This document shows, piece after piece, positions 920 to 15,922 of a DNA stretch of 21,039 bases; positions within the stretch are counted from its first letter, which is position 1, and each line of letters opens with the position of its first letter. The translations under genes and the position numbers were made by a program. This stretch comes from a virus. Its lineage: Duplodnaviria > Heunggongvirae > Uroviricota > Caudoviricetes. The notes below the pieces were generated by a model. That model saw nothing but the letters and a program-made list of their open reading frames with translations. It searched no databases and was not told where the DNA came from. The stretch lies in the IMG/VR virus record IMGVR_UViG_2718218398_000002. One strand, 5' to 3'.

Positions 920-1068
920 AACCGCAGCACGTTCCTGCATACGACGTGTCTGCGGCATAATCCCAATGATTACTCCCTGACAGGATTTGCAGGCCACTCA
1001 ATATCAGGTGCAGTTGATGTATCAACACGATTCAACAATACCCGATATTTATTCCATGCCTCCAGCAA
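920..1068. repeat. direct repeat copy A (tfa 3' end plus downstream hairpin)
   Basis: About 150 bp, roughly 85-90% identical to 1971..2118. Covers the last ~30 codons of the Tfa-like ORF and the hairpin ccgcagcacg...cgtgtctgcgg. Confidence 0.8.
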
Positions 1069-1239
1069 CGATCTTTCTTCCTCCGTTGCGATTTCCAGAT
1101 CTACAGCATCCTGCAGTGGCGCAATATACTCACTGAATTCCTGGATGTAGAACTGTGTGGTGACGGTCTTCCAGCCATTCGGCTCCTGCTGTATCGAAGC
1201 ATACCAGGCTATTTCAATATCGCTATGCTGCGGCAGCAT
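970..1239 (-). CDS. tail fiber assembly protein-like (Tfa C-terminal domain only)
   Basis: 89-aa ORF whose C-terminus ([44 protein letters not shown]) matches the conserved C-terminus of Tfa chaperones. It has an SD (AAGGGG) 4-5 nt before the ATG and an in-frame stop immediately upstream, so it is either a short standalone Tfa-like protein or a 5'-truncated remnant. Confidence 0.6.
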
Positions 1240-1266
1240 TTAACCCCTTGTAATTCATCGCCATAA

Positions 1267-1295
1267 TTGATTTAATTCACAAATAAAACTATAAC
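1267..1295 (+). promoter_or_regulatory. putative sigma70 promoter for the methyltransferase gene
   Basis: TTGATT (1267..1272), 17-bp spacer, TATAAC (1290..1295) in an AT-rich divergent intergenic region. The predicted transcription start falls at or after the first ATG, which favours the second ATG at 1308 as the real start. Confidence 0.35.
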
Positions 1296-1964
1296 ATGGT
1301 GAAATCAATGAAAAAAAACACAGATGATGGGGCTAAAATTTACACACCACTTACCCTAAAGCTTTATGACTGGTGGGTTTTGGGAGTATCAAATCGGCTT
1401 GCATGGGGATGTCCTACAAAGGAACACCTTCTTCCACACTTTCTGGAACATGTAGGTAACAACCATCTGGATATTGGTGTTGGAACTGGGTTTTACCTTA
1501 CTCACGTACCTGAGAGTAGTCTGATATCTTTAATGGATTTGAACGAAGCTAGCCTGAACGCGGCATCTACAAGGGCTGGGGAATCAAAAATTAAACATAA
1601 AATTAGCCATGATGTTTTTGAACCTTATCCCGCGGCGTTACATGGTCAATTTGATTCCATTTCCATGTTTTACCTTCTTCACTGCCTGCCTGGAAATATA
1701 TCTACAAAAAGCTGTGTAATACGCAATGCGGCGCAGGCCTTAACTGACGATGGAACTCTATACGGAGCCACAATTCTTGGCGATGGAGTTGTGCACAATA
1801 GCTTCGGTCAAAAACTGATGCGCATTTACAATCAGAAAGGCATCTTTTCAAACACAAAAGATTCCGAAGAAGGCTTAACACATATACTCTCAGAGCATTT
1901 CGAGAATGTTAAAACCAAGGTTCAAGGTACTGTAGTAATGTTTTCCGCTTCAGGGAAAAAATAG
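1296..1964 (+). CDS. class I SAM-dependent methyltransferase, substrate unknown (cargo gene)
   Basis: 222-aa ORF with Rossmann-fold methyltransferase motif I (HLDIGVGTGFY), an acidic residue after beta-2 (LISLMDLNEASL) and a later DDGTLYG motif. No DPPY/NPPY-type DNA-methyltransferase motif. Markedly more AT-rich than the tail genes. Alternative start at ATG 1308 (MKKNTDDG) has a better SD (GGTGA, 5-nt spacing). Confidence 0.6.
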   Translation: MVKSMKKNTDDGAKIYTPLTLKLYDWWVLGVSNRLAWGCPTKEHLLPHFLEHVGNNHLDIGVGTGFYLTHVPESSLISLMDLNEASLNAASTRAGESKIKHKISHDVFEPYPAALHGQFDSISMFYLLHCLPGNISTKSCVIRNAAQALTDDGTLYGATILGDGVVHNSFGQKLMRIYNQKGIFSNTKDSEEGLTHILSEHFENVKTKVQGTVVMFSASGKK

Positions 1965-1970
1965 CATCCA

Positions 1971-2118
1971 ACCGCAGCACGTTCTTGCTTAAGACGTGCT
2001 GCGGCATAATCCCAATGATTACTCCCTGACAGGGTTCGTAGGCCACTCAATATCAGGTGCAGTTGATGTATCAACACGGTTCAGTAACACCCGATACTTT
2101 TTCTAGGCTTCCACCACC
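1971..2118. repeat. direct repeat copy B (tfa 3' remnant plus hairpin)
   Basis: Partner of 920..1068. Contains the hairpin ccgcagcacgtcttaagcaagaacgtgctgcgg and encodes ...[27 protein letters not shown] on the minus strand. Confidence 0.8.
2019..2105 (-). pseudogene. tail fiber assembly gene 3' remnant fused downstream of the pin remnant
   Basis: Minus-strand translation [27 protein letters not shown] then stop, matching the last 27 residues of the Tfa-like ORF at 970..1239. No start codon; it is in frame with the pin remnant through stop codons. Confidence 0.65.
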
Positions 2119-2369
2119 AGCACGACAAGATGCCGCATACAGTGAACCAGTCAGTCCAGTTTTCAGACAACCAGTGCGTCACCTTTTTGAAGGCGCTTTA
2201 AAGCACGTTTTAATCCAGGTCGGCCTGTCCTTGTTCCGCTTAATTTATCTTCAAATATTTGTTCATATCCTGCACAAACAAGAGCGTTTCGTTGCAGATC
2301 TGTATTCTGGTCATTTGTTGATACCCTTACATAGCCAATCAGCACGCTGAATCTCCCGTCCAAAAGCAC
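2106..2369 (-). pseudogene. pin: DNA invertase (Pin/Gin/Hin/Cin serine recombinase family), N-terminal catalytic-domain remnant
   Basis: Translation VLIGYVRVSTNDQNTDLQRNALVCAGYEQIFEDKLSGTRTGRPGLKRALKRLQKGDALVV aligns with the Pin/Gin N-terminus including the catalytic Ser motif. Homology continues in frame through two nonsense substitutions (the W and R codons of the WKLDRLGR region both read TGA) and further missense changes, then is replaced by a tfa 3' end. The C-terminal HTH domain is absent. Confidence 0.8.
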
Positions 2370-2399
2370 AAATCATGCCATGCAGGCCAGAAACCGCCA

Positions 2400-2425
2400 T
2401 TATCTAAAACCTCGGTTTACAGGAA
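2400..2425. repeat. gix/pix-like 26-bp recombination site (left boundary of the invertible segment)
   Basis: TTATCTAAAACCTCGGTTTACAGGAA is a near match to the Gin/Pin crossover-site consensus as recalled. It sits just upstream of the pin remnant and is an inverted partner of 5482..5507. Confidence 0.7.
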
Positions 2426-2470
2426 ACGGTAAACAAGGCTGGTAACGCCGTTCAGCGTTCCGGCGATAAA

Positions 2471-3439: not shown

Positions 3440-3455
3440 CCATCAGGAGAATATA

Positions 3456-3982
3456 TGCAACATCTGAAAAATATTACCGCCGGAAACCCCAAAACCATTG
3501 AGCAGTATCAGCTTACGAAAAAAGCTGGCGTTATCTGGCTATATACAGAAGACGGTAAAAACTGGTATGACGAATTAAAAAAACTTTCAGGATGATACTT
3601 TAAAAATAGCTTATGACCAGAAGGGGATTATTCGTTGTATTGAGAAAGACGTATCAACACTTAACCCTGACGGGTTAAGTGTTGTTGAGTTACCGAATAT
3701 AACAGCCAACCGTCGCGCCGATATCTCGGGAAACTGGAAGTTTCTGGATGGTAAAGTAGTAAAGCGGGAATATACAAAACAGGAACTGCAACAGCAGGCA
3801 GAGTTACAAAAAGCCGCTTTGCTTTCCGAAGCGGAGTCTGTGATTCAACCGCTGGAACGTGCTGTCAGACTGAATATGGCAACTGATGAGGAACGCACAC
3901 GACTGGAATCATGGGAACGCTACAGCGTTATGGTCAGCCGTGTGGATACTGCAAAGCCTGAATGGCCACAGAAACCAGAATA
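3456..3982 (+). pseudogene. tail fiber assembly protein (alternative cassette tfa'), frameshifted
   Basis: SD AGGAG 6 nt before ATG 3456. N-terminus [41 protein letters not shown] parallels Tfa at 4014..4547. The frame breaks in an A7 run at 3577..3583 (one extra A relative to the in-frame reading) and homology continues in another frame to ...[13 protein letters not shown]. Confidence 0.75.
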
Positions 3983-3992
3983 ACAACAAATT

Positions 3993-4017
3993 AAGGCCCG
4001 TACGGGCCTTTTCTTAT
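3993..4017. terminator. hairpin between the convergent tfa' and tfa genes
   Basis: aaggcccg ta cgggcctt followed by TTTTCTT on the plus strand; it sits between the two convergent stop codons. Confidence 0.5.
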
Positions 4018-4548: not shown

Positions 4549-7374
4549 TTAAACGCTCGCTACATTATACCAGGTGCCATTTATATACTTTTGAACGGGT
4601 CTGTAATAAACGCCCGCTATATTATCGGCAGAGTTAGACCCTGTATCCTGAACATTAATACCAGACAATACATGACCTGAAGGGCACTGGAAATTCCATG
4701 TTTGCCAGTTGTTCACTCCATAATATTGCTGTGAACCAAGTCGAACATCTTTCACATAACGGGAATCAAAGTTACCGTAATCCGAGGGGTTAACACGCCC
4801 TGTAATATTTATGGTTTTATTACTTTGAATGCTTCCGGAGACAAAGCGCATAACATGGACGTTATTAGCATAAACATCCAGATTACCATCGCCATTTTGT
4901 TTAAAGCCCGTGTCATTATCACCCAATACAATCGAATTACCGCCAAGAGCACTGGATGTTCCGATACCCAGTGCACCATTCAGTTGACCACCAGATAACG
5001 GCAGTGCACCAACATCTCCTGCTGAAGGCTTTCTGGTGGTGGTGTAAAATTCGGACCAGTCGGCTTCAAAACCATAACCATCACGGGCTGAACGATAAAA
5101 AATACCGCCATTTTTATAATTAATCCGAAACTGAGCTGCAGGACAACTTCCTTCTCCCATATAAAAATGAATAATTAACGTTGATGCACCACTAATAGTT
5201 GCGTTATAGGCTCCGCTACTCCAGTTCCATCCAACTGCTTTATCATTCGCAACGGTGCTTCCTGTTTTCCCTAAGGCAAACGCACCAACATGACTTGCTT
5301 TTAATGTGATATCGGAGGAACCATCAAAAGCCACATTGCTTATTTTCCTGGCAGTTTTTAATTTTGCAGCTGTAGAAGCATTGCCGGATAGTTCACCAGA
5401 AAGGCCACCGCTGAATGTTTGTCGATTAGTCCAGGTATTCGCTGTACTGAGTAACGGTATTTTCTCCCCGCTTGTGCCGAGTTCTCGTAAACCGAGGTAT
5501 TCGATAACGGCGGCAACGGTCGATTTCGCAAGAATATCCCGCCCAACTTTTGTCAGGGTTGCCAGACTGGCAACATCATTCCCCGTAAAATACGGAAACC
5601 TGTCTGCCGCAGTAGCAAGCCCGGCCAGCGCCGTCAGGGTGGCATCTTTCGGTTGCTTACCCGCAAGCGCGCTAGTCATGGTGGTCGCAAAATTCGGGTC
5701 GTTGCCCAACGCCGCAGCCAGCTCGTTCAGCGTATTCAGTGCGTCAGGCGACGAGTCCACGAGGGCAGCGATCGCAGCCATAACATAAGCCGTGCTTGCG
5801 ATTTGGGTATTATTCGTTCCCTGTCGCGCAGTTGGTGTTGTTGGCGTTCCGGTCAGTGCAGGACTATTTAAGGGCGCTTTCTTGTTCGTTTCACCCATTA
5901 CCGCCTTAACCGCTTTTGGCGTTGCCGCCAGTGACTCGGAAGTGCTGTTGGTCGCACTGCTGAGCTGTACTATCCCCTTTTTCGTCGTGCTCGCATCCTC
6001 AAGCGCCACGGCGGATGCAATATCCTCTGCCCGTTTTGCCGCTGTCTCGGCGCGCGTTGCCGCGGATTCCGCCGTACTTTTGCTCTGAGCTGCCGCCGTC
6101 GCACTGCCAGCTGCCTCTGTCGCCTTCGTGGATGCCGTCGTGGCGCTGCCCTTTGCTGCTGACGCCTGTCTGGTCGCCTCATCTTTTGAAGCAGACGCAG
6201 ATGATGCCGATGACGCCGCTGAACTGGCTGACGATGCGGCTGCCGCCTTAGAGGAAGCAGCATTGTCTGCTGAAGTCTTTGCATTTGTTTCAGAGGTTTT
6301 TGCTGCAGAAGCAGACCTCGCTGCTGCAGTGGCTTGCTCAGTGGCTTTGCCAGCCTTCGTTGTGGCTGTTGAAGCGGATGATGCGGCGCTTTCTGCCGAT
6401 TTTCCGGCGGCGGTGGCACTGGCTGAGGCCTGCCCGGCACTTGTTGACGCGGCACTGGCAGATAATGCAGCCGCTGTTTTTGAACCTGCCGCAGCTGAGG
6501 CGCTCTGTCCCGCTGCTGTTTCAGAAGACTTAGCGTTCGTCTCGGACGTTTTTGCCGCCTTCGCGGAATTTCCTGCCGCCGTTGCCGAGGAAGCTGCACT
6601 ACTGGCACTTGATGATGCATTCGTTTCTGAAGATTTCGCTGCCTCTTTTGAGGCCGCCGCACCCCGTGCCGAGGTGGCAGCTTCTGACGCCTTCGTGGTC
6701 GCTGTGGATGCAGAAGTGGCTGCCGATTTTTGTGATGCTGCGGCATTCGTTTCTGACGTTTTCGCGGCACTGGCGCTGGTAGCTGCCGCGCTTTTTGATG
6801 ACTCTGCAGCAGCAGCACTTTTTGCTGCTTCACGGGCCTTTGTCGATGCCGTTCCTGCGCTGGAAGACGCTGACTGAGCCGACGACGCGGCCTGTCCGGC
6901 TGACGTGCTGGCGGCACGTGATGAGGCTGCAGCATCGGTTGCATGAGTTGCCGCCTCGCTGGCTGATGCACTGGCATCGCTGGCTGATTTTTTCGCGGCT
7001 GCCGTATTCTGTGCAACCGCGGAGGCGTTACGTGACACCTCTTCTACCATCTGCTCAAAGCGGCGCAGTGCCTCCGGTCGTACATCATCCTCCGTCATGG
7101 CACCGAGAAAATCATTCAGCGTACCTGGTCTGGAACCTTCATAGACGGTAATGGTCCCGGCATGTGAAGGCGGAAAACCTTCAACCAGCAGGGTGACGCT
7201 GTACTGACCATGCTCAACATCCATGCTGTAACGTCCGGCTTCATCCGGATTTTCAGAGGCCACCGTGTTCACCACCACCGTGCTGCTGGTTCGTCTGGCC
7301 TTCAGCACAATGGTGCAGTTCTGTACTGGTTTTCCTGTGCCATCTTTAAGCACGCCAGAAATTTTTACTGTCAT
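4549..7374 (-). CDS. stf: side tail fiber protein, lambda Stf-like N-terminus with an invertible-cassette C-terminus
   Basis: 941-aa intact ORF with RBS GGTGGA. N-terminus [26 protein letters not shown]... and the long Ala/Ser/Thr-rich repeat region resemble lambda Stf as recalled. The C-terminal ~316 aa lie inside the invertible segment and end in [18 protein letters not shown]. Confidence 0.9.
5482..5507. repeat. gix/pix-like 26-bp recombination site inside stf (right boundary of the invertible segment)
   Basis: TTCTCGTAAACCGAGGTATTCGATAA matches the reverse complement of the 2400..2425 site at 22 of 26 positions with an identical central AAACCGAGGT core. It encodes ...[11 protein letters not shown]... 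at the constant/variable junction of the fiber. Confidence 0.65.
5990..7010 (-). repeat. imperfect tandem repeats encoding the Ala/Ser/Thr-rich low-complexity region of the fiber
   Basis: Repeated peptide units such as [10 protein letters not shown] and [21 protein letters not shown]-rich and repetitive DNA that also produces long spurious ORFs in other frames (5970..7016 minus, 6128..6877 plus). Confidence 0.7.
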
Positions 7375-7520: not shown

Positions 7521-7750
7521 TGTTGTCAGAAACGGTATCCGATACCAACAATAAATGCATCCGTTCGCCAGTCGCCACTACCGGAACCTTCATAAGCAAG
7601 GTCAATGGTCACGGATTCGGTCGGGTTAAACTGCACGCCAGCCCCCCACGCCAGAGACGTGTTGCTGTGGCGACCGTCATCACTTCCGGTCAGCACATCG
7701 TGCGTTTTCCCCTTGTTGTCAGTTACGCGGAGATAATCCCCGGAGAAAGT
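7521..7750 (-). pseudogene. lom: lom (Ail/Lom-family outer membrane protein) 3' fragment, separated by the IS insertion
   Basis: Minus-strand translation ...SGDYLRVTDNKGKTHDVLTGSDDGRHSNTSLAWGAGVQFNPTESVTIDLAYEGSGSGDWRTDAFIVGIGYRF then stop, matching the lambda Lom C-terminus. Confidence 0.85.
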
Positions 7751-7836
7751 TGCGTATTACCGTGAAGGAGATCGGTGAGTAACATCGATGGAGATCGGTT
7801 CGTGTCACTTTCACAGAACCGTTTTTTAAATTACCT

Positions 7837-10779: not shown

Positions 10780-13700
10780 TCAGCTAATCGTGATGCCTGC
10801 AGTGGCTTTCTTCATCACCACAACCAGCAAATCGCTGATACTTGCTGTGGGATACCAGTTATTTACCAGCCATGCTGACACCGAAAACTCCAGTGTCATG
10901 TGACCGTGACCGGCAGGCATATCAATAACACCACTGTAAATCAGCGTATTATCCAGCGCGGTACGGTTATAAATTTCAGCACCGTTTTTCCGCACTATCA
11001 GACGGCATGAGGAGTAAATATCAGTATGCTCTTTCTCATGTTTAGCGCCGCTGAATGCCACCGCCGGAATAACAATCTGCCGGTCAAACGGCTGATCGTC
11101 ATAAACCCTGACGGTAATGGTTCCTGATGGCCACCGCTCCGGTGCACGGGAGTCCCGGGGGAAAGCTTTGCCCACTGTTTTAACGAGATCGCCTTCAATC
11201 TGGTTCGCGGACAATTTTCCCAGAACCCGACAGTTCTCGTTAATCGTGACGTTGTTGAGCGTCCCGGAGTTCGCATTCACGTTACCGCTGATATCGGCAT
11301 TTTTCGCCGTCAGCCGCCCGTCCGGTGTCAGGGAAAATGCCGGAGGATTACCGCCGCTGGTAATGGTGGGAGCCGTCAGATATTTCAGGAACACTTCATT
11401 CATAAATATCTGATCGCCCTGACCAACAAACATCGGCTTTGTGTTGCCATTCGCAGGATTAATCATCGCAATCCTGTCTGCCGCCAGCAGCACCTGACTC
11501 TGCATTCCTGCTGGCGTATTCTCAATACCGGCACCGATACCCGCAATATAAAGGCGTCCGTCCTGCATCTGCTGCAGTTTCACGGCCCACATGCTGTTCA
11601 GGTTATTATTTGTATCAACCTGAACTTTCTGTATCTGCTGGATTGCCGCACTCTGATTTTCCAGTTTTTTATTGACGGTCTGCGTGATTTCATTGCTGAC
11701 ATTCGTAATGGACGTCCTGATTTCAGCCAGGTCCGGCGCAAGCTGACCGTTATCAATCTGCGTCCACAGCTCCTGGGCCAGATGTGTTTTCCCGATTTCT
11801 CCTTTGAAAAAATCCAGGTAACCTTCCGCATCATCGCTCGCCCGACCGACAGCCTCCACGAATGCCGATTTGCCAACAGTATTCACACTGCGGATATAAA
11901 AATAATAATCATGGCCCGGTTTGATATTGATACTGGCAGCTATCCAGTACAGCGCCGAGCCAAGATAGCGGGCTGCGGTTTCAACCTGCCTGATATCCGC
12001 AATCCGCTTTTCCGAGAACCAGAACTCAAACTGTACCGTCGGGTCATAAACGGCAAGATGTGGCGTTGCGGTTATCTGAAAATAGCCCGGCGTCAGCTCA
12101 ATCCGCGACGGTGCTGCCGGTGCGGCAATCCGGAAGGTGGTGGTGGCAGGTTCACCCTGCTGGCCATAGCTGTTTATCGCCCGCACCGTCAGGGTGTATT
12201 CCCCGAGCGGCAGGCCGCTGAAACGGTGCTCCGTGTCTGCGGTGATGGCGGTGGTCACCAGTCTGGCATCCGTTCCCTTACCACTGGTCAGGCGCAGACT
12301 GAAGCGCACACCCTTCACCACCCGCGGCGTGTCCATTTCGCCTGCGCCAGATACTGGCCGTCAGCTGCGCTCACCTCCACCGTCAGGTGCTGCACTGCCG
12401 GTGGGATGACGCTGTTCAGGGAACCTGACTGCGGCTCAAAGCGGGCACCGTTATCCACGATGGCTTCTTTTTCCGGTACGTGCTGCACCGCCGTGATGGC
12501 AAAGGTGCCGTCCGTGTTTTCCCGGATGGAGACACAGCGGAACAGGCGACGGCGCAGTGACGGCAGGGAGAGTCCCCCACACCCCGTATGTCTCCACACC
12601 ATCAGGCAGGGTACTGACCTGTATCCGGTCCGGCGCGGGGTGTGCGGTGATGTCCACACTCACCGGCTTACCGCTGCCGTTAATCAGGTTCACCGCCGAT
12701 GTACCTGTCTCCGGCAGGGTAACCTCACGGTCCAGCGTCAGGGTGCGGGTGGCAGCATCAATGGACAGGACACGTCCGCCGGTCAGGGTCCCGGCATAGT
12801 CATTATCACAGATTTCAATAATGTCACCGGGTGTGTGCCGCAGCCCCTGAGACCCGAGCGTGAAATCCACCGTCTGCGTTTCCAGCAGTTCGGTCTTTAT
12901 CACCCACAGTCCGGCACGGTGGGCCTGACCGCGGCTGGTACAGCCGAACGCGTCCATCTTCAGCAGGTTGCGTCCGTAGCGCAGTATGGCTTCCGGGTCT
13001 TCCACCAGTTCCGTGGAGGTCTGCCAGCCGTTCTGCGGGTCGGTGTAATTCACCTCCACCGCCGTGTGCCGGTCCTTCAGGGCACTGAAGCTGTAGCGGA
13101 ATCCCACGCCGTTATCATCCACCACCACATCGCTGTTGGTGTACGGCCACACCACATCCGACGGGCGGTCCTGAACGAACGTCAGCGTCTGACCGTTCCA
13201 TACCGGGCATACAGCGCATCGCAGAGCAGAAATCACTGAGAACGTCCCACGCCTTACGCTGTTGTGCCAGGTACGCATTAAAGGTCATCCGCGGCTCGGT
13301 CCCCCCGAAACCATCCGGGACCGTCTGGTCGCAGTACTGCCCGATGGCATACAGCGCCCACTTGTCCACATCCGCCGCCCCCAGACGTTTTTCCCATGCC
13401 GTAGCGCGGGTGAGTCAGCATGTCCCACAGACACCAGGCCGGGTTGTTGCTGTATGCCGGTTTCAGACTGCCGTCCCAGATACCACTATACGTGCGTTTT
13501 TCCGGGTCATAGTTTGACGGCACCTGGATGATGCGACCGCGGATATGGTAGTTCACCGTCATCTGCTGGCCGCCGAACTGCTCCGCATCCACCTGCAGCC
13601 CCACAATGGCCGTGTTCGGGTAGCACTGTTTCACATCGATGATTTCGGTGTATGACGACCACAGCGTCTTATTCTGCAGCTGGTCCGTGGTGCTGTCCGC

Positions 13701-14255
13701 CGTCTCCCTGACCATCCGGATGTTAAAGGGCCGGGGAGGCAGATTATCCAGAATCACCGAGGCCAGGAACTGTGAGGTGGTCTTGCCGTTAATGGTGACG
13801 TCCTTTTCTGTCACCCAGTTACCGTTACGCTGTAACTGAATCAGCAGGCGGACGGATGCCGGGTTACGGTCACCCTTTGAGGTGGTCTCCACCAGTGACT
13901 GCACCCCGAAGGTAACCCGCAGGCGGTCAATGTTCGCGGACGTAATGGTGCGCGTCACCGGTTTTGCCTTCGTCACTTCCACGCCCAGTCCGGTTTCAGC
14001 TCCGGAGGACTCAAAGCCTTCCGGTGGTGTCTGCTCCTGCTCCCCGGCGCGCCAGACCGCCGTCACACCGTGTATCACGGGATTGCCGTCCGTGTCCGTC
14101 AGTGGGGTTTTGTTCACCAGAATACTCTGCAGTCCCTTCACCGGACCTTCTATCGGTCCCTCACCAATCGCATCAATCACGCTCATCATCTGCGTGGATT
14201 TGAGATTATCCTTCGCCTCACGAGGCGTGTGTGCCTTACCGCCACCTTTTCCCAT
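10780..14255 (-). pseudogene. J: tail tip / host specificity protein J, broken by four single-base frameshifts
   Basis: Five consecutive minus-strand ORFs (13278..14255, 13115..13369, 12451..13278, 12315..12659, 10780..12336) are collinear with lambda J from its MGKG... N-terminus onward. Each junction is a 1-bp indel in a homopolymer (near 13387..13391, 13205..13207, 12573..12577 and 12337..12338). Confidence 0.85.
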
Positions 14256-14359
14256 ACAGCCTTCCCCTGAATAAATTAACCGCCACTTGCCATTCCGTAC
14301 AGAAGTCGGATATCCTTCGCCCGAAAAGCATGAAACACATTTCTGCCATGCTAAAGAGA

Positions 14360-14393
14360 AACCCCGGTATCAGCAGATACCGGGGTTTTCTTT
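14360..14393. terminator. strong hairpin inside the I-J intergenic insert
   Basis: Perfect 11-12-bp stem accccggtatc / gataccggggt with loop agca, followed by TTTTCTTTC on the plus strand and UUUCUCUUU on the minus strand. Confidence 0.45.
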
Positions 14394-14462
14394 CATGCCC
14401 ACCGATAATCCTGTTGGTTAAAACCGGGTAATGGCATAAAAATTTCTGAATATCTTCACATT

Positions 14463-14490
14463 TTCACACACTGACTGTGGCGCTTATAAT
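14463..14490 (+). promoter_or_regulatory. near-consensus sigma70 promoter, plus strand, antisense to the tail operon
   Basis: TTCACA (14463..14468), 16-bp spacer, TATAAT (14485..14490), with an AT-rich UP-like tract just upstream (14433..14460). Confidence 0.4.
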
Positions 14491-14496
14491 TTCGCT

Positions 14497-14594
14497 GCGT
14501 TAGTGTTTTTTTGCCCGAGTAACAAAAACAACTCCTTAACATTGATCTTCATTTGTCTGTCCCCGCAGCTCCGCGATCACTGCGGGATTTTTTT
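14497..14594 (+). ncRNA. candidate ~100-nt small RNA (promoter to terminator, no ORF)
   Basis: Lies between the predicted transcription start after the TATAAT box and the intrinsic terminator at 14562..14594. Contains no ATG with an SD. Confidence 0.25.
14562..14594 (+). terminator. intrinsic terminator, plus-strand orientation, abutting the I stop codon
   Basis: Stem cccgcag...ctgcggg followed by T7 (14588..14594). On the minus strand an A-run precedes the stem, so it is not a canonical terminator for gene I. Confidence 0.5.
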
Positions 14595-14599
14595 ATGTT

Positions 14600-15282
14600 T
14601 TATCCCTGTCGCCCGATAACCACGACCGTTCCGCCCCCGCCTTCATCACGGGTGCTGATGTCCTGGGATATACGGCGGGAGCCAACCAGCATTTCCCCGT
14701 AAGGCACCGGCATCGGGTTCCCCTGGGCAATCATGTTATCCAGCGAGGAAAAGTACGTGTTCTGTCTGCCGTTATCCGTTGCGCGGTAATCCGGTGTTTT
14801 TGCCTTCGGGGCCAGCATCTGGGCCACACCGCCCAGAATCATGCTGGCTCCAAGTGAAAACAGCATCGTGGTGGCAGAAAAACCACCGGGCTGCCAGGGC
14901 TGAACCCCATAACGCCATTGATGCCCCGGCAGTGAAGAAAGAGCCCACGATGGCTGCCGCCCCCAGGCACAATCTGCAGTCCACCCTTTCCGGCCCCGGC
15001 CAGTCGCGGCACAATATGGATGACCGTTCCCTCACCCAGCTGTTCGTGAAGACGGGCGTACACCGCCTCCGGTGCCGTGTCATAACCGGCAATACGTATC
15101 TGGTACCAGCCTTCGTTCATCTGACGGCGAAAGCCCGGCACCTGTAACGACAGCGCCCGGATGGCTTCCGCTGCCGTGTTCACATACAGGCTGAGGCGGC
15201 GGCCAAATCGTTGTAAATCCCCGTGAAGGCAGATGCGTGCCAGTGGCGGTGACGCCAGACAGAATGCGTTCGTCGTTGCCAT
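14600..15282 (-). pseudogene. I: tail assembly protein I, two frameshifts
   Basis: Three overlapping minus-strand ORFs (14839..15282, 14772..15092, 14600..14866) are collinear with lambda I (ARICLxGDLQRFGRR ... AAAIxGSFFTAGA ... LFSLGASMxLGGVAQMLAPKA ... NTYFSSLDNM). Confidence 0.8.
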
Positions 15283-15922
15283 TTTTCGGAATACCTCTCC
15301 CGTTTACTCAGTTGTTCAGGCAGATGGTGAAGCAGCTCACCGTTGCCGCAGTAAATGGCGGCATGGTTCGGTACCGAAGCACCAAAGCAGCACAGCAGAA
15401 TATCGCCCGCCTGTGCAGAGGACAGGGGCACCCGGTAAAAGCCGGTGACCGCCATATTGTCCAGGTAAAGGTTCTGACCGTTGCGCCACCAGTCATCCTC
15501 GCGATGAAATCCGGCATTTCAGTCCCCGCCAGATGATAAGCATCCCGGAACAGCGTGTAACAGTCCGTCACCCCGTGCTCAAAGCGCCGTCCTGTCAGAT
15601 GTGGCACACAGCGGAATTTGTGAATGTCACCCCGGCAGACCAGCCACCAGGGCAGTGCGCTTTTTATCTGCAGCCGCCGGTCAGCCTCGCTCAGCCAGGG
15701 CAGCCCACCGGGATGACTGTGGACCAGTGCCACAATCTCCCCCTGCATCTCTGCCCGCAGCCAGTCTTCCGGTGCGATACGAAAATACGCCTCCGGCTCT
15801 GCAGAAATATTCACACAAGGGATATACCACTCCCCCTCCGACGTGCTTATCACGAAGCCGCACGACTCCGCAGGCGCACACCGCCGGGCATGCGCCAGAA
15901 TCGCTGATTCAGTCTGTGTCAT
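15180..15922 (-). pseudogene. K: tail assembly protein K (MPN/JAMM plus NlpC/P60-like), one frameshift
   Basis: MTQTESAILAHARRCAPAESCGFVIS...HSHPGG...DCYTLFRDAYHLAG then a frame break (a single-base deletion near 15505, changing TTCC to TTC in the coding sense), continuing as ...VTGFYRVPLSSAQAGD...PNHAAIYCG... in the ORF 15180..15455. Overlaps the start of I by about 100 nt. Confidence 0.8.

Follow-up and report, generated by a model that had tools for sequence, protein, structure and literature searches.

Organization of the locus

The window, i.e., the whole stretch of 21,039 nucleotides that was analyzed, is, judging from its sequence, a lambdoid prophage located at the ompW site of an ST131-like Escherichia coli. 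The segment 600–2500 occurs at 100% identity in JJ1886 and other ST131 strains; in JJ1886 this locus forms the end of a lambdoid prophage that adjoins trpA and lies beside a truncated ompW. Over the 19.1 kb that can be aligned, the window is ~99.8% identical to the JJ1886 prophage, with ~20 single-base indels, and it is free of the ISEcp1-blaCTX-M-15 insertion carried by the tape-measure gene of JJ1886. The features of the region described here are as follows:

1–558: Rha-family gene
Between the Rha gene and the left hairpin, minus strand: DUF4376 pseudogene remnant
920–1067, minus strand: left direct repeat, comprising the hairpin located 3' of tfa and the last ~32 codons of the tfa remnant
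922–954, minus strand: left hairpin, stem of ~12 bp with one bulge (-22.6 kcal/mol, z -3.3)
970–1146, minus strand: left tfa remnant (equivalent of K-12 tfaX), last 58 codons and the stop codon
1147–1307, plus strand: upstream region of the methyltransferase gene, starting at the junction 1146|1147, with candidate promoters and a possible Shine-Dalgarno sequence GGTGA (1298–1302)
1308–1964, plus strand: ybcY-type class I SAM-dependent methyltransferase, 218 aa
1970–2116, minus strand: right direct repeat, comprising a hairpin and 32 terminal codons from a second tfa allele, ending at 2116/2117
1972–2004, minus strand: right hairpin (-28.5 kcal/mol, z -5.2)
2117–2369, minus strand: junction segment and truncated Pin-type invertase gene, the right-hand limit of the repeat in the window
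2163–2369, minus strand: truncated Pin-type invertase, N-terminal 68 codons (Resolvase N-terminal domain, E 4.6e-15)

Going from left to right, the tail-fibre genes lie beyond the invertase remnant. The methyltransferase gene is read from the plus strand and the tfa remnants from the minus strand, in agreement with the opposite orientation noted originally. The presence of two direct repeats, predicted to be ~85–90% identical, is confirmed by BLAST, which aligns 920–1067 with 1970–2116 at 88.5% identity over 148 columns (E 2e-48), within 1–2 nucleotides of the limits first given (920–1068 and 1971–2118). The copies mismatch at 17 of these 148 positions (11.5%), and a repeat search splits them into the pairs 920–948/1970–1998 (90%) and 950–1067/1999–2116 (89%), separated by a 1-nt indel. 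Each repeat consists of a stable hairpin followed by the final codons of a minus-strand tfa frame, a composition that had been proposed earlier and is borne out by RNA folding as well as by the tfa frames themselves. When folded in the tfa sense and compared with 200 shuffles each, neither the left nor the right hairpin was matched in stability by any shuffled sequence. Both hairpins share the same stem, with mismatches at three positions of the loop and one additional bulged base in the left one. A terminator-like site was listed by a scan on the minus strand at 939–923, within the left hairpin, which is probably the 3' stem-loop or a weak terminator of the tfa transcript. On the methyltransferase strand the hairpin has no canonical U-tract, and its role as a terminator of the methyltransferase gene is therefore uncertain. 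In its untruncated form the repeat comprises 227 bp (the hairpin and the last 177 nt of tfa, 920–1146 in the window); since the right copy ends at 2116/2117, just 148 bp are repeated here.

The left tfa remnant is the 3' part of an 89-aa open reading frame (970–1239), the first ~31 codons of which are not Tfa-like. The remnant matches positions 75–130 of the 131 positions of Pfam Caudo_TAP (E 6e-25), the entire 89-aa frame matches phrog_2341, and the equivalent coordinates in JJ1886 are annotated by PGAP as a pseudogene. On the same strand, 1013–1216 scores 112.5 bits with Rfam IS009, slightly below the gathering score of 117. The right copy, of ~32 codons, has its stop codon at 2019–2021 and another in-frame stop further up, after which its translation yields a stretch of 27 residues. 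Neither the left nor the right remnant provides a full-length match to the 131 positions of Caudo_TAP, whereas the intact tfa located at 4014–4547 matches positions 2–131. The junction between the right-hand tfa remnant and the pin remnant (2041–2440) is found, at 96% identity, in the Rac prophage of XH993, where the methyltransferase gene is absent at that spot; this junction is, as read from the sequences, older and independent.

Upstream of the methyltransferase gene, a simple scan locates a candidate sigma-70 promoter, TTAACC-16-CATAAT, at 1240–1267, in a region where the number of sites found by the promoter scan is no higher than in shuffles. A second candidate, TTGATT-17-TATAAC, is present at 1267–1295, and the same hexamers are listed for ybcY by genomic SELEX with the RNA polymerase holoenzyme of K-12, in which the ybcY/tfaX spacer is both RNA polymerase-bound and H-NS-bound (PMC3946193). 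An independent promoter for the methyltransferase gene of the window is plausible on the basis of these motifs. In one strain PGAP annotates a DinI remnant upstream of the gene, with an unconvincing translation of 27 codons.

The GC content of the methyltransferase gene is 41.1%, and that of the 56-bp spacer upstream (1240–1295) is 26.8%, compared with 52.4% for the whole window and 52.8% for stf. The adjacent tfa genes (41.6–43.7%) and the pin remnant (43.5%) are almost as AT-rich as the gene itself, and the repeats fall at 47–49%. The description of the gene as much more AT-rich than its flanks thus holds with respect to the window and stf, but is overstated for its immediate neighbours.

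Distribution of the module and origin of the arrangement

The original prediction likened the locus to the tfaD-ybcY-tfaX arrangement of the DLP12 prophage of E. coli K-12 with its decayed methyltransferase gene, and this resemblance proved to be close. The segment 993–2116 of the window is 97% identical to the DLP12 locus; the order and orientation of the elements (tfa remnant, divergent methyltransferase, hairpin, convergent tfa) are the same in both, as are the promoter hexamers TTGATT-17-TATAAC. With the methyltransferase query, K-12 strains show 98.8–98.9% DNA identity over 722 bp. Two indels are present in ybcY of K-12, which carries a frameshift annotation, whereas the gene in the window is intact, and from the alignment it is the intact form of this pseudogene. 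The right-hand tfa (tfaD) retains 438 nt in K-12 but ~98 nt in the window, where it is fused to the truncated invertase gene. The left flank is occupied by appY in K-12, and by the DUF4376 remnant followed by rha in the window, and the 3' part of the left remnant (993–1060) is represented by a K-12 allele that differs from that of the window at 19 sites. The arrangement as such is already known: the pseudogene cluster of K-12 has long been annotated and the phage protein family is recurrent. Being annotated in thousands of genomes, the arrangement is an ordinary one.

Of 5426 complete E. coli genomes, 3835 contain a match of ≥95% identity to a 722-bp query made up of the methyltransferase gene and short flanking stretches. 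The gene also occurs in 14 records of phages, among them ev243, 2G7b, PhiR26_1, Kati, and Turner. In PhiR26_1 the genes follow the order J, lom, stf, full-length tfa, methyltransferase (convergent with tfa), tfa remnant, hydrolase, and ompT, and the arrangement in phage ev243 is similar. In turn, all that is left of DLP12 in many strains is remnants of an integrase gene and of tfa, followed by the methyltransferase gene and ompT, which helps to explain the high prevalence of the gene. Altogether, the core is found in at least four left contexts (DUF4376 remnant, appY, hydrolase-ompT, and ompT), as well as in several right contexts.

Presence and absence of the gene can be compared directly in strains BKQ37E (empty) and 5444 (filled), whose prophages at the ompW site are the same and adjoin the same chromosomal sequence. 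BKQ37E lacks the methyltransferase gene, and its DUF4376 remnant and hairpin lead directly into a full tfa and then stf. In 5444, the DUF4376 remnant and the first hairpin are separated from the full tfa and stf by a 177-nt tfa remnant, an 823-bp insert with the methyltransferase gene, and another hairpin. The two alleles differ by the insert and a second tfa 3' end, and the cassette-like presence/absence pattern that the original prediction proposed to look for is therefore found. In the BLAST comparison of a filled allele (L016) with an empty one (L013), positions 4–5446 of L016 match at 99.4%, and 6270–7108 of L016 match 5221–6060 of L013 at 94.5%. From the overlap of these matches it follows that 227 bp that are single in the empty allele are double in the filled one, around the 823-bp insert, and a base-by-base alignment agrees with this pattern. 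The tfa of the empty allele represents a third variant, with just 94.5% identity to the right-hand tfa of the filled allele, so its prophage may either have lacked the insert from the outset or have lost one. As to frequency, filled alleles with the left flank of the window are found in 845 genomes covering at least 80% of 700–2450. A search with the empty junction returned 381 genomes, which is an upper bound on empty alleles, since the search joins both pieces of a filled allele into one place and the number thus mixes empty and filled alleles; in an evenly spaced sample of these results, only the top-ranked record is a single-piece, truly empty match.

The limits of the shared sequence were surveyed in 60 records sampled at even spacing. 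On the left, homology ends at window position 920, 993, 1015, or 1210, and on the right at 1988, 2004/2010, 2092, or 2113–2119. Differences from the window are also distributed unevenly along individual copies. The empty allele has one difference in 622–1029 and then 20 in 1030–1146; K-12 and Kati have 19 differences in 993–1060 and few afterwards; PhiR26_1 is 99.4% identical from 1015 on. These sharp switches delimit the part common to all copies to ~1061–2004. Within it, the methyltransferase core differs by ~0.5–3% between contexts, and the junction 1146|1147, at which tfa homology gives way to the region upstream of the methyltransferase gene, is common to all examined copies that retain the left remnant. 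The left remnant is an internal piece of tfa in the majority of contexts, and in some the right repeat is reduced to the hairpin. Since the repeats are 11.5% diverged and the core at most 3%, the flanking copies go back to distinct tfa alleles that recombination brought together rather than to a duplication created at insertion.

We consider it likely that this region is a ybcY-type accessory (moron) module of lambdoid prophages, spread by homologous recombination in tfa. Such a module would consist of a stand-alone methyltransferase gene, read in the direction of tfa and located just past it, where the late operon ends. Its travelling part (~1061–2004) would comprise the internal tfa remnant, the 823-bp segment with the promoter and the methyltransferase gene, and the hairpin. 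In the simplest history, of two steps, the inner junction 1146|1147 would have been made once, by an old illegitimate recombination that put the tfa remnant, methyltransferase gene, hairpin, and tfa into one unit, after which the module could be gained or lost by ordinary homologous recombination, with the tfa remnant serving as the left arm and either the conserved hairpin with the tfa 3' end, or tfa/stf beyond it, serving as the right arm. Landing beside a resident tfa, the module would leave the tfa 3' end in two directly repeated copies that belong to different alleles. The right copy in the window would have been shortened further by joining the older junction of the tfa remnant with the truncated invertase gene. 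The earlier proposal of cargo captured through repeats of the tail-fibre module agrees with this scheme as far as recombination through tfa homology is concerned, but the repeats are the 3' ends of two tfa alleles rather than special cassette ends.

A possible, if somewhat doubtful, alternative is that the filled state is ancestral and the module was not actively transplanted, empty alleles having arisen by RecA-dependent deletion between the tfa 3' ends. The empty allele is of the left type up to ~1029 and nearer to the right type beyond, as a product of such a crossover would be, and the filled alleles with this left flank are as common, and truly empty matches as scarce in the sample, as given above. 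Past the crossover, however, the tfa of the empty allele is just 94.5% identical to the sampled filled alleles, and the occurrence of the same core in several left and right contexts requires transfer between prophages. Site-specific recombination by the neighbouring invertase was also considered and rejected; the sole gix-like core near the module (1912–1923, one mismatch) is located inside coding sequence, is unpaired, and was taken as a chance match. Finally, the notion that the methyltransferase segment is a mobile cassette inserted in tfa, with the repeats as its target-site duplication, accommodates the 227-bp segment found once in the empty allele and twice around the 823-bp insert, but it is largely refuted and extremely improbable, as 1147–1969 contains no transposase, integrase, or terminal inverted repeat, 227 bp greatly exceeds the usual length of target-site duplications of transposable elements, which are far shorter, the flanking copies (148–227 bp) are much more diverged than the insert, and the left copy is mostly an internal piece of tfa without the hairpin.

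On the preferred reading of a module exchanged by homologous recombination, the arrangement is a textbook-style case of cargo moved from prophage to prophage through conserved tail-fibre gene ends used as recombination handles, with breakpoints mapped here to within a few tens of bases.

Family, fold, and possible role of the methyltransferase

The methyltransferase open reading frame on the plus strand (1296–1964) encodes 222 residues, and its start at 1296 is used by PGAP as well as in the original prediction of an intact 222-aa methyltransferase. All 26 of the aligned homologues begin at residue 5 of this frame, and the 218 positions of phrog_2132 are matched from end to end (1–218, E 3.9e-157), from which the start is likely to be the ATG at 1308. 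The frame is thus intact as predicted, with a likely length of 218 residues rather than 222.

The assignment to class I methyltransferases with a Rossmann fold is substantiated by profiles, motifs, and the predicted structure. Four Pfam families score above their gathering cut-offs, i.e., Methyltransf_12 (37.5 bits, cut-off 30), Methyltransf_23 (29, cut-off 27), Methyltransf_25 (27.7, cut-off 27), and Methyltransf_11 (24.6, cut-off 21.2), and the Pfam matches are confined to the generic Methyltransf_* families and MTS. The confident structural model has an alternating β/α fold with a seven-stranded sheet. An alignment of 27 homologues from Escherichia, Citrobacter, Salmonella, Enterobacter, Klebsiella, Yersinia, Erwinia, Aeromonas, Shewanella, and one genus of Pasteurellaceae shows invariance of motif I (D59-I-G61-V-G63-T64-G65, with Asp59, Gly61, Gly63, Thr64, and Gly65 invariant), of the acidic Asp81 at the end of strand 2, and of His105-Asp106; the listed residues of motif I and Asp81 occupy SAM-binding motif positions. 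Other invariant residues are specific to the family, namely Tyr24-Asp25-Trp26-Trp27 (within YDWWV near the N terminus), His129-Cys130 after strand 4, Asp189, and the motif YNxKGIFSNxxD.

In both Foldseek and profile searches, the closest structures and profiles are those of small-molecule or lipid methyltransferases, with a phospholipid head-group enzyme as the top Foldseek match. Juvenile hormone acid methyltransferase, UbiG, bacterial phosphatidylethanolamine N-methyltransferase, BelI/CysG, and NodS share 12–21% identity with the YbcY-type protein, which differs from them in having its own invariants YDWWV, HC, and YNxKGIFSN. Because the ranking is flat and the identity this low, orthology with any of these enzymes is not claimed. 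As modelled, the protein is a generic class I methyltransferase of the small-molecule type, with no DNA-methylase motif. We infer that the enzyme would methylate a small molecule or a lipid, not a nucleic acid.

Homologues at 56–65% identity are single chromosomal genes located outside prophages in Enterobacter, Salmonella, Yersinia, and Erwinia, and the homologue in Enterobacter is likewise AT-rich (39% GC, with 50.5% in its surroundings). A conserved neighbour gene, sought as a guide to the substrate, was not found in common among the contexts in Enterobacter, Salmonella, Yersinia, Aeromonas, and Erwinia. The recurring α/β hydrolase neighbours were considered as a partner and dismissed, since they are not mutually homologous (BLASTP E 0.87) and belong to different Pfam families. 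No functional study of ybcY or tfaX was found in the literature.

It appears unlikely that the gene is a silent, functionless relic hitch-hiking in prophage remnants. Its status as a pseudogene in K-12, the H-NS bound at the K-12 spacer, and its location in decayed prophage ends, among pseudogenes, all agree with such a reading. However, eight of the nine contexts examined, phages propagated in laboratory hosts among them, have an intact reading frame with at most three amino-acid changes, and the frame is broken in K-12 alone; moreover, the protein cluster at 100% identity has 6589 member sequences, and the catalytic motifs are invariant across genera. Within E. coli, pN/pS is ~0.2–0.3, a value that derives from no more than seven substitutions, too few to be informative.

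A role as a nucleic-acid methyltransferase, which would either protect phage DNA from restriction or modify host RNA, is very improbable. Phages often carry DNA methylases, which gives this idea its initial appeal, and the Dam/N4C-type DNA methyltransferases of phages resemble the YbcY-type enzyme in being phage-borne and SAM-dependent. The latter differs from them by the absence of a DPPY-type motif, a target-recognition domain, and a match to a DNA-methylase family: a pattern search finds no [DNS]PP[YFW] motif in the protein, no DNA methylase is present among the Pfam matches or the fold matches listed, and the single domain of 218 residues includes no target-recognition domain. The original argument against an N6-adenine or N4-cytosine DNA methylase is upheld by these results. 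The Foldseek and profile matches to small-molecule enzymes, as well as the ordinary chromosomal location of the homologues outside prophages, also speak against such an activity, and the sole match to a defence system in PADLOC, mad2, is non-significant (E 0.0096, 12.8 bits).

The gene would presumably be expressed in the lysogen from its own H-NS-repressed sigma-70 promoter, and its product may benefit the host rather than the phage particle. We can speculate, with low confidence, that the YbcY-type enzyme is an active lysogenic-conversion methyltransferase present in ~70% of E. coli, acting on a small-molecule or membrane-lipid substrate, and unstudied because the K-12 allele is a pseudogene. 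If that were so, the methylated group could be, for example, a carboxylate, as for juvenile hormone acid methyltransferase, or a phospholipid head group, as for the top Foldseek match, and the physiology or surface chemistry of the host would be altered in pathogenic lineages such as ST131 and O157. The role of the methyltransferase is the sole substantial question posed by this locus. Most E. coli, clinical lineages among them, carry the gene in intact form, and it is broken in K-12, the laboratory strain behind most work on gene function in E. coli.

Comparison with known systems

Two further known systems resemble the module proposed here. Morons, a concept of Hendrix and colleagues, are accessory genes with their own promoter and terminator that are located between conserved phage genes. 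With the morons of lambdoid phages the module shares a single, oppositely oriented gene at the end of the late region, a predicted promoter, a flanking hairpin, a GC content below the phage average, and presence or absence among close relatives. It differs from a typical moron in its small GC contrast with the immediate neighbours; expression in the lysogen with an effect on the host, another mark of morons, is presumptive for the module.

The second system is the exchange of tail-fibre modules through conserved stf/tfa segments, reportedly described by Haggard-Ljungquist in 1992 and by Sandmeier in 1992 and 1994 for lambda, Mu, P1, P2, and e14. Common to that exchange and to the ybcY-type module are breakpoints located inside the conserved 3' end of tfa and alleles that are patched together from different sources. 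The module stands apart in that it carries a cargo gene unrelated to the tail, and in that a direct repeat of the tfa 3' end, instead of a simple replacement of one allele by another, is found.

Reading frames and small-RNA matches around the methyltransferase gene

Two short reading frames lie beside or across the ybcY-type methyltransferase gene:

970-1239 (-), 89-aa ORF containing the left tfa remnant; end-to-end match to phrog_2341 (E 4e-61)
1909-2046 (-), 45-aa "hypothetical protein" called by PGAP; "nucleocapsid protein" in K-12-type records

The first ~35 residues of the 89-aa ORF also match a second family, phrog_3893, of unknown function. In other contexts this ORF ends in different C-termini, or is broken by a frameshift or an in-frame stop codon, so it is probably in decay, though it could alternatively encode a short Tfa-C-like protein. 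On the strand opposite to the methyltransferase gene, the 45-aa ORF runs across that gene's 3' end and the hairpin; it is most likely an annotation artifact.

Both tfa remnants are matched by IS009 (RF02111), an Rfam family representing a candidate small RNA, with 112.5 bits for the left remnant (1013-1216, minus strand) and 43.5 bits for the right one (2062-2141, minus strand), compared to a gathering score of 117. The IS009 model seems to correspond to sense-strand tfa coding sequence, and thus these matches may only flag the tfa remnants. A second Rfam family, CssrB (RF02799), is matched weakly and in part across the right hairpin.

Gene neighborhoods in related prophages and other genomes

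Esterase/lipase genes are found near the methyltransferase gene in phages and in several genera (L002 2971-4455, L022 2281-3813, L007 7584-8414, and L018 6170-8173). These genes belong to separate, mutually non-homologous families, so their recurrence is probably a coincidence. In E. coli O157:H7 FRIK2533, a four-gene cluster (L004 7218-9431), encoding a general stress protein, two ferritin-like proteins, and a manganese catalase, lies between the methyltransferase unit and a functional tfa. Its genes are similar to chromosomal yciG-yciF-yciE, which flank the ompW site, and the cluster looks like host genes acquired by the prophage.

Compared to the prophage of the ST131 genome JJ1886, the window carries ~20 single-base indels (at 3577, 7707-7822, 12333-15507, and 17433), which fragment the alternative tfa (3455..3983), the IS21-family transposase gene, and the J gene, and which look like either long-read assembly error or recent decay. 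The tape-measure gene of the JJ1886 prophage is interrupted by ISEcp1-blaCTX-M-15 (L001 37726-40966); this insertion is absent from the window, where the sequence runs unbroken through the corresponding site at ~18183.

The truncated invertase gene and the tail-fiber segment

The junction of the ~96-nt tfa 3' remnant with truncated pin (window 2041-2440) has a 96% identical counterpart in the Rac prophage of XH993 (L014 5001-5400), where it adjoins an intact pinR and is found without the methyltransferase gene. The junction is an older rearrangement, common to different prophages. Two gix/pix-like crossover sites are also present:

2400-2425, TTATCTAAAACCTCGGTTTACAGGAA, immediately upstream of the truncated invertase gene
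5482-5507, within stf, inverted relative to the first site, with 22 of the 26 positions matching

The ~3.1-kb segment that they delimit contains two alternative tail-fiber C-termini, as well as two tfa genes in opposite orientation, and looks like an invertible tail-fiber region of the Mu G-segment type. Its own invertase is cut down to 68 codons, and flipping would therefore be possible only with an enzyme from another prophage.
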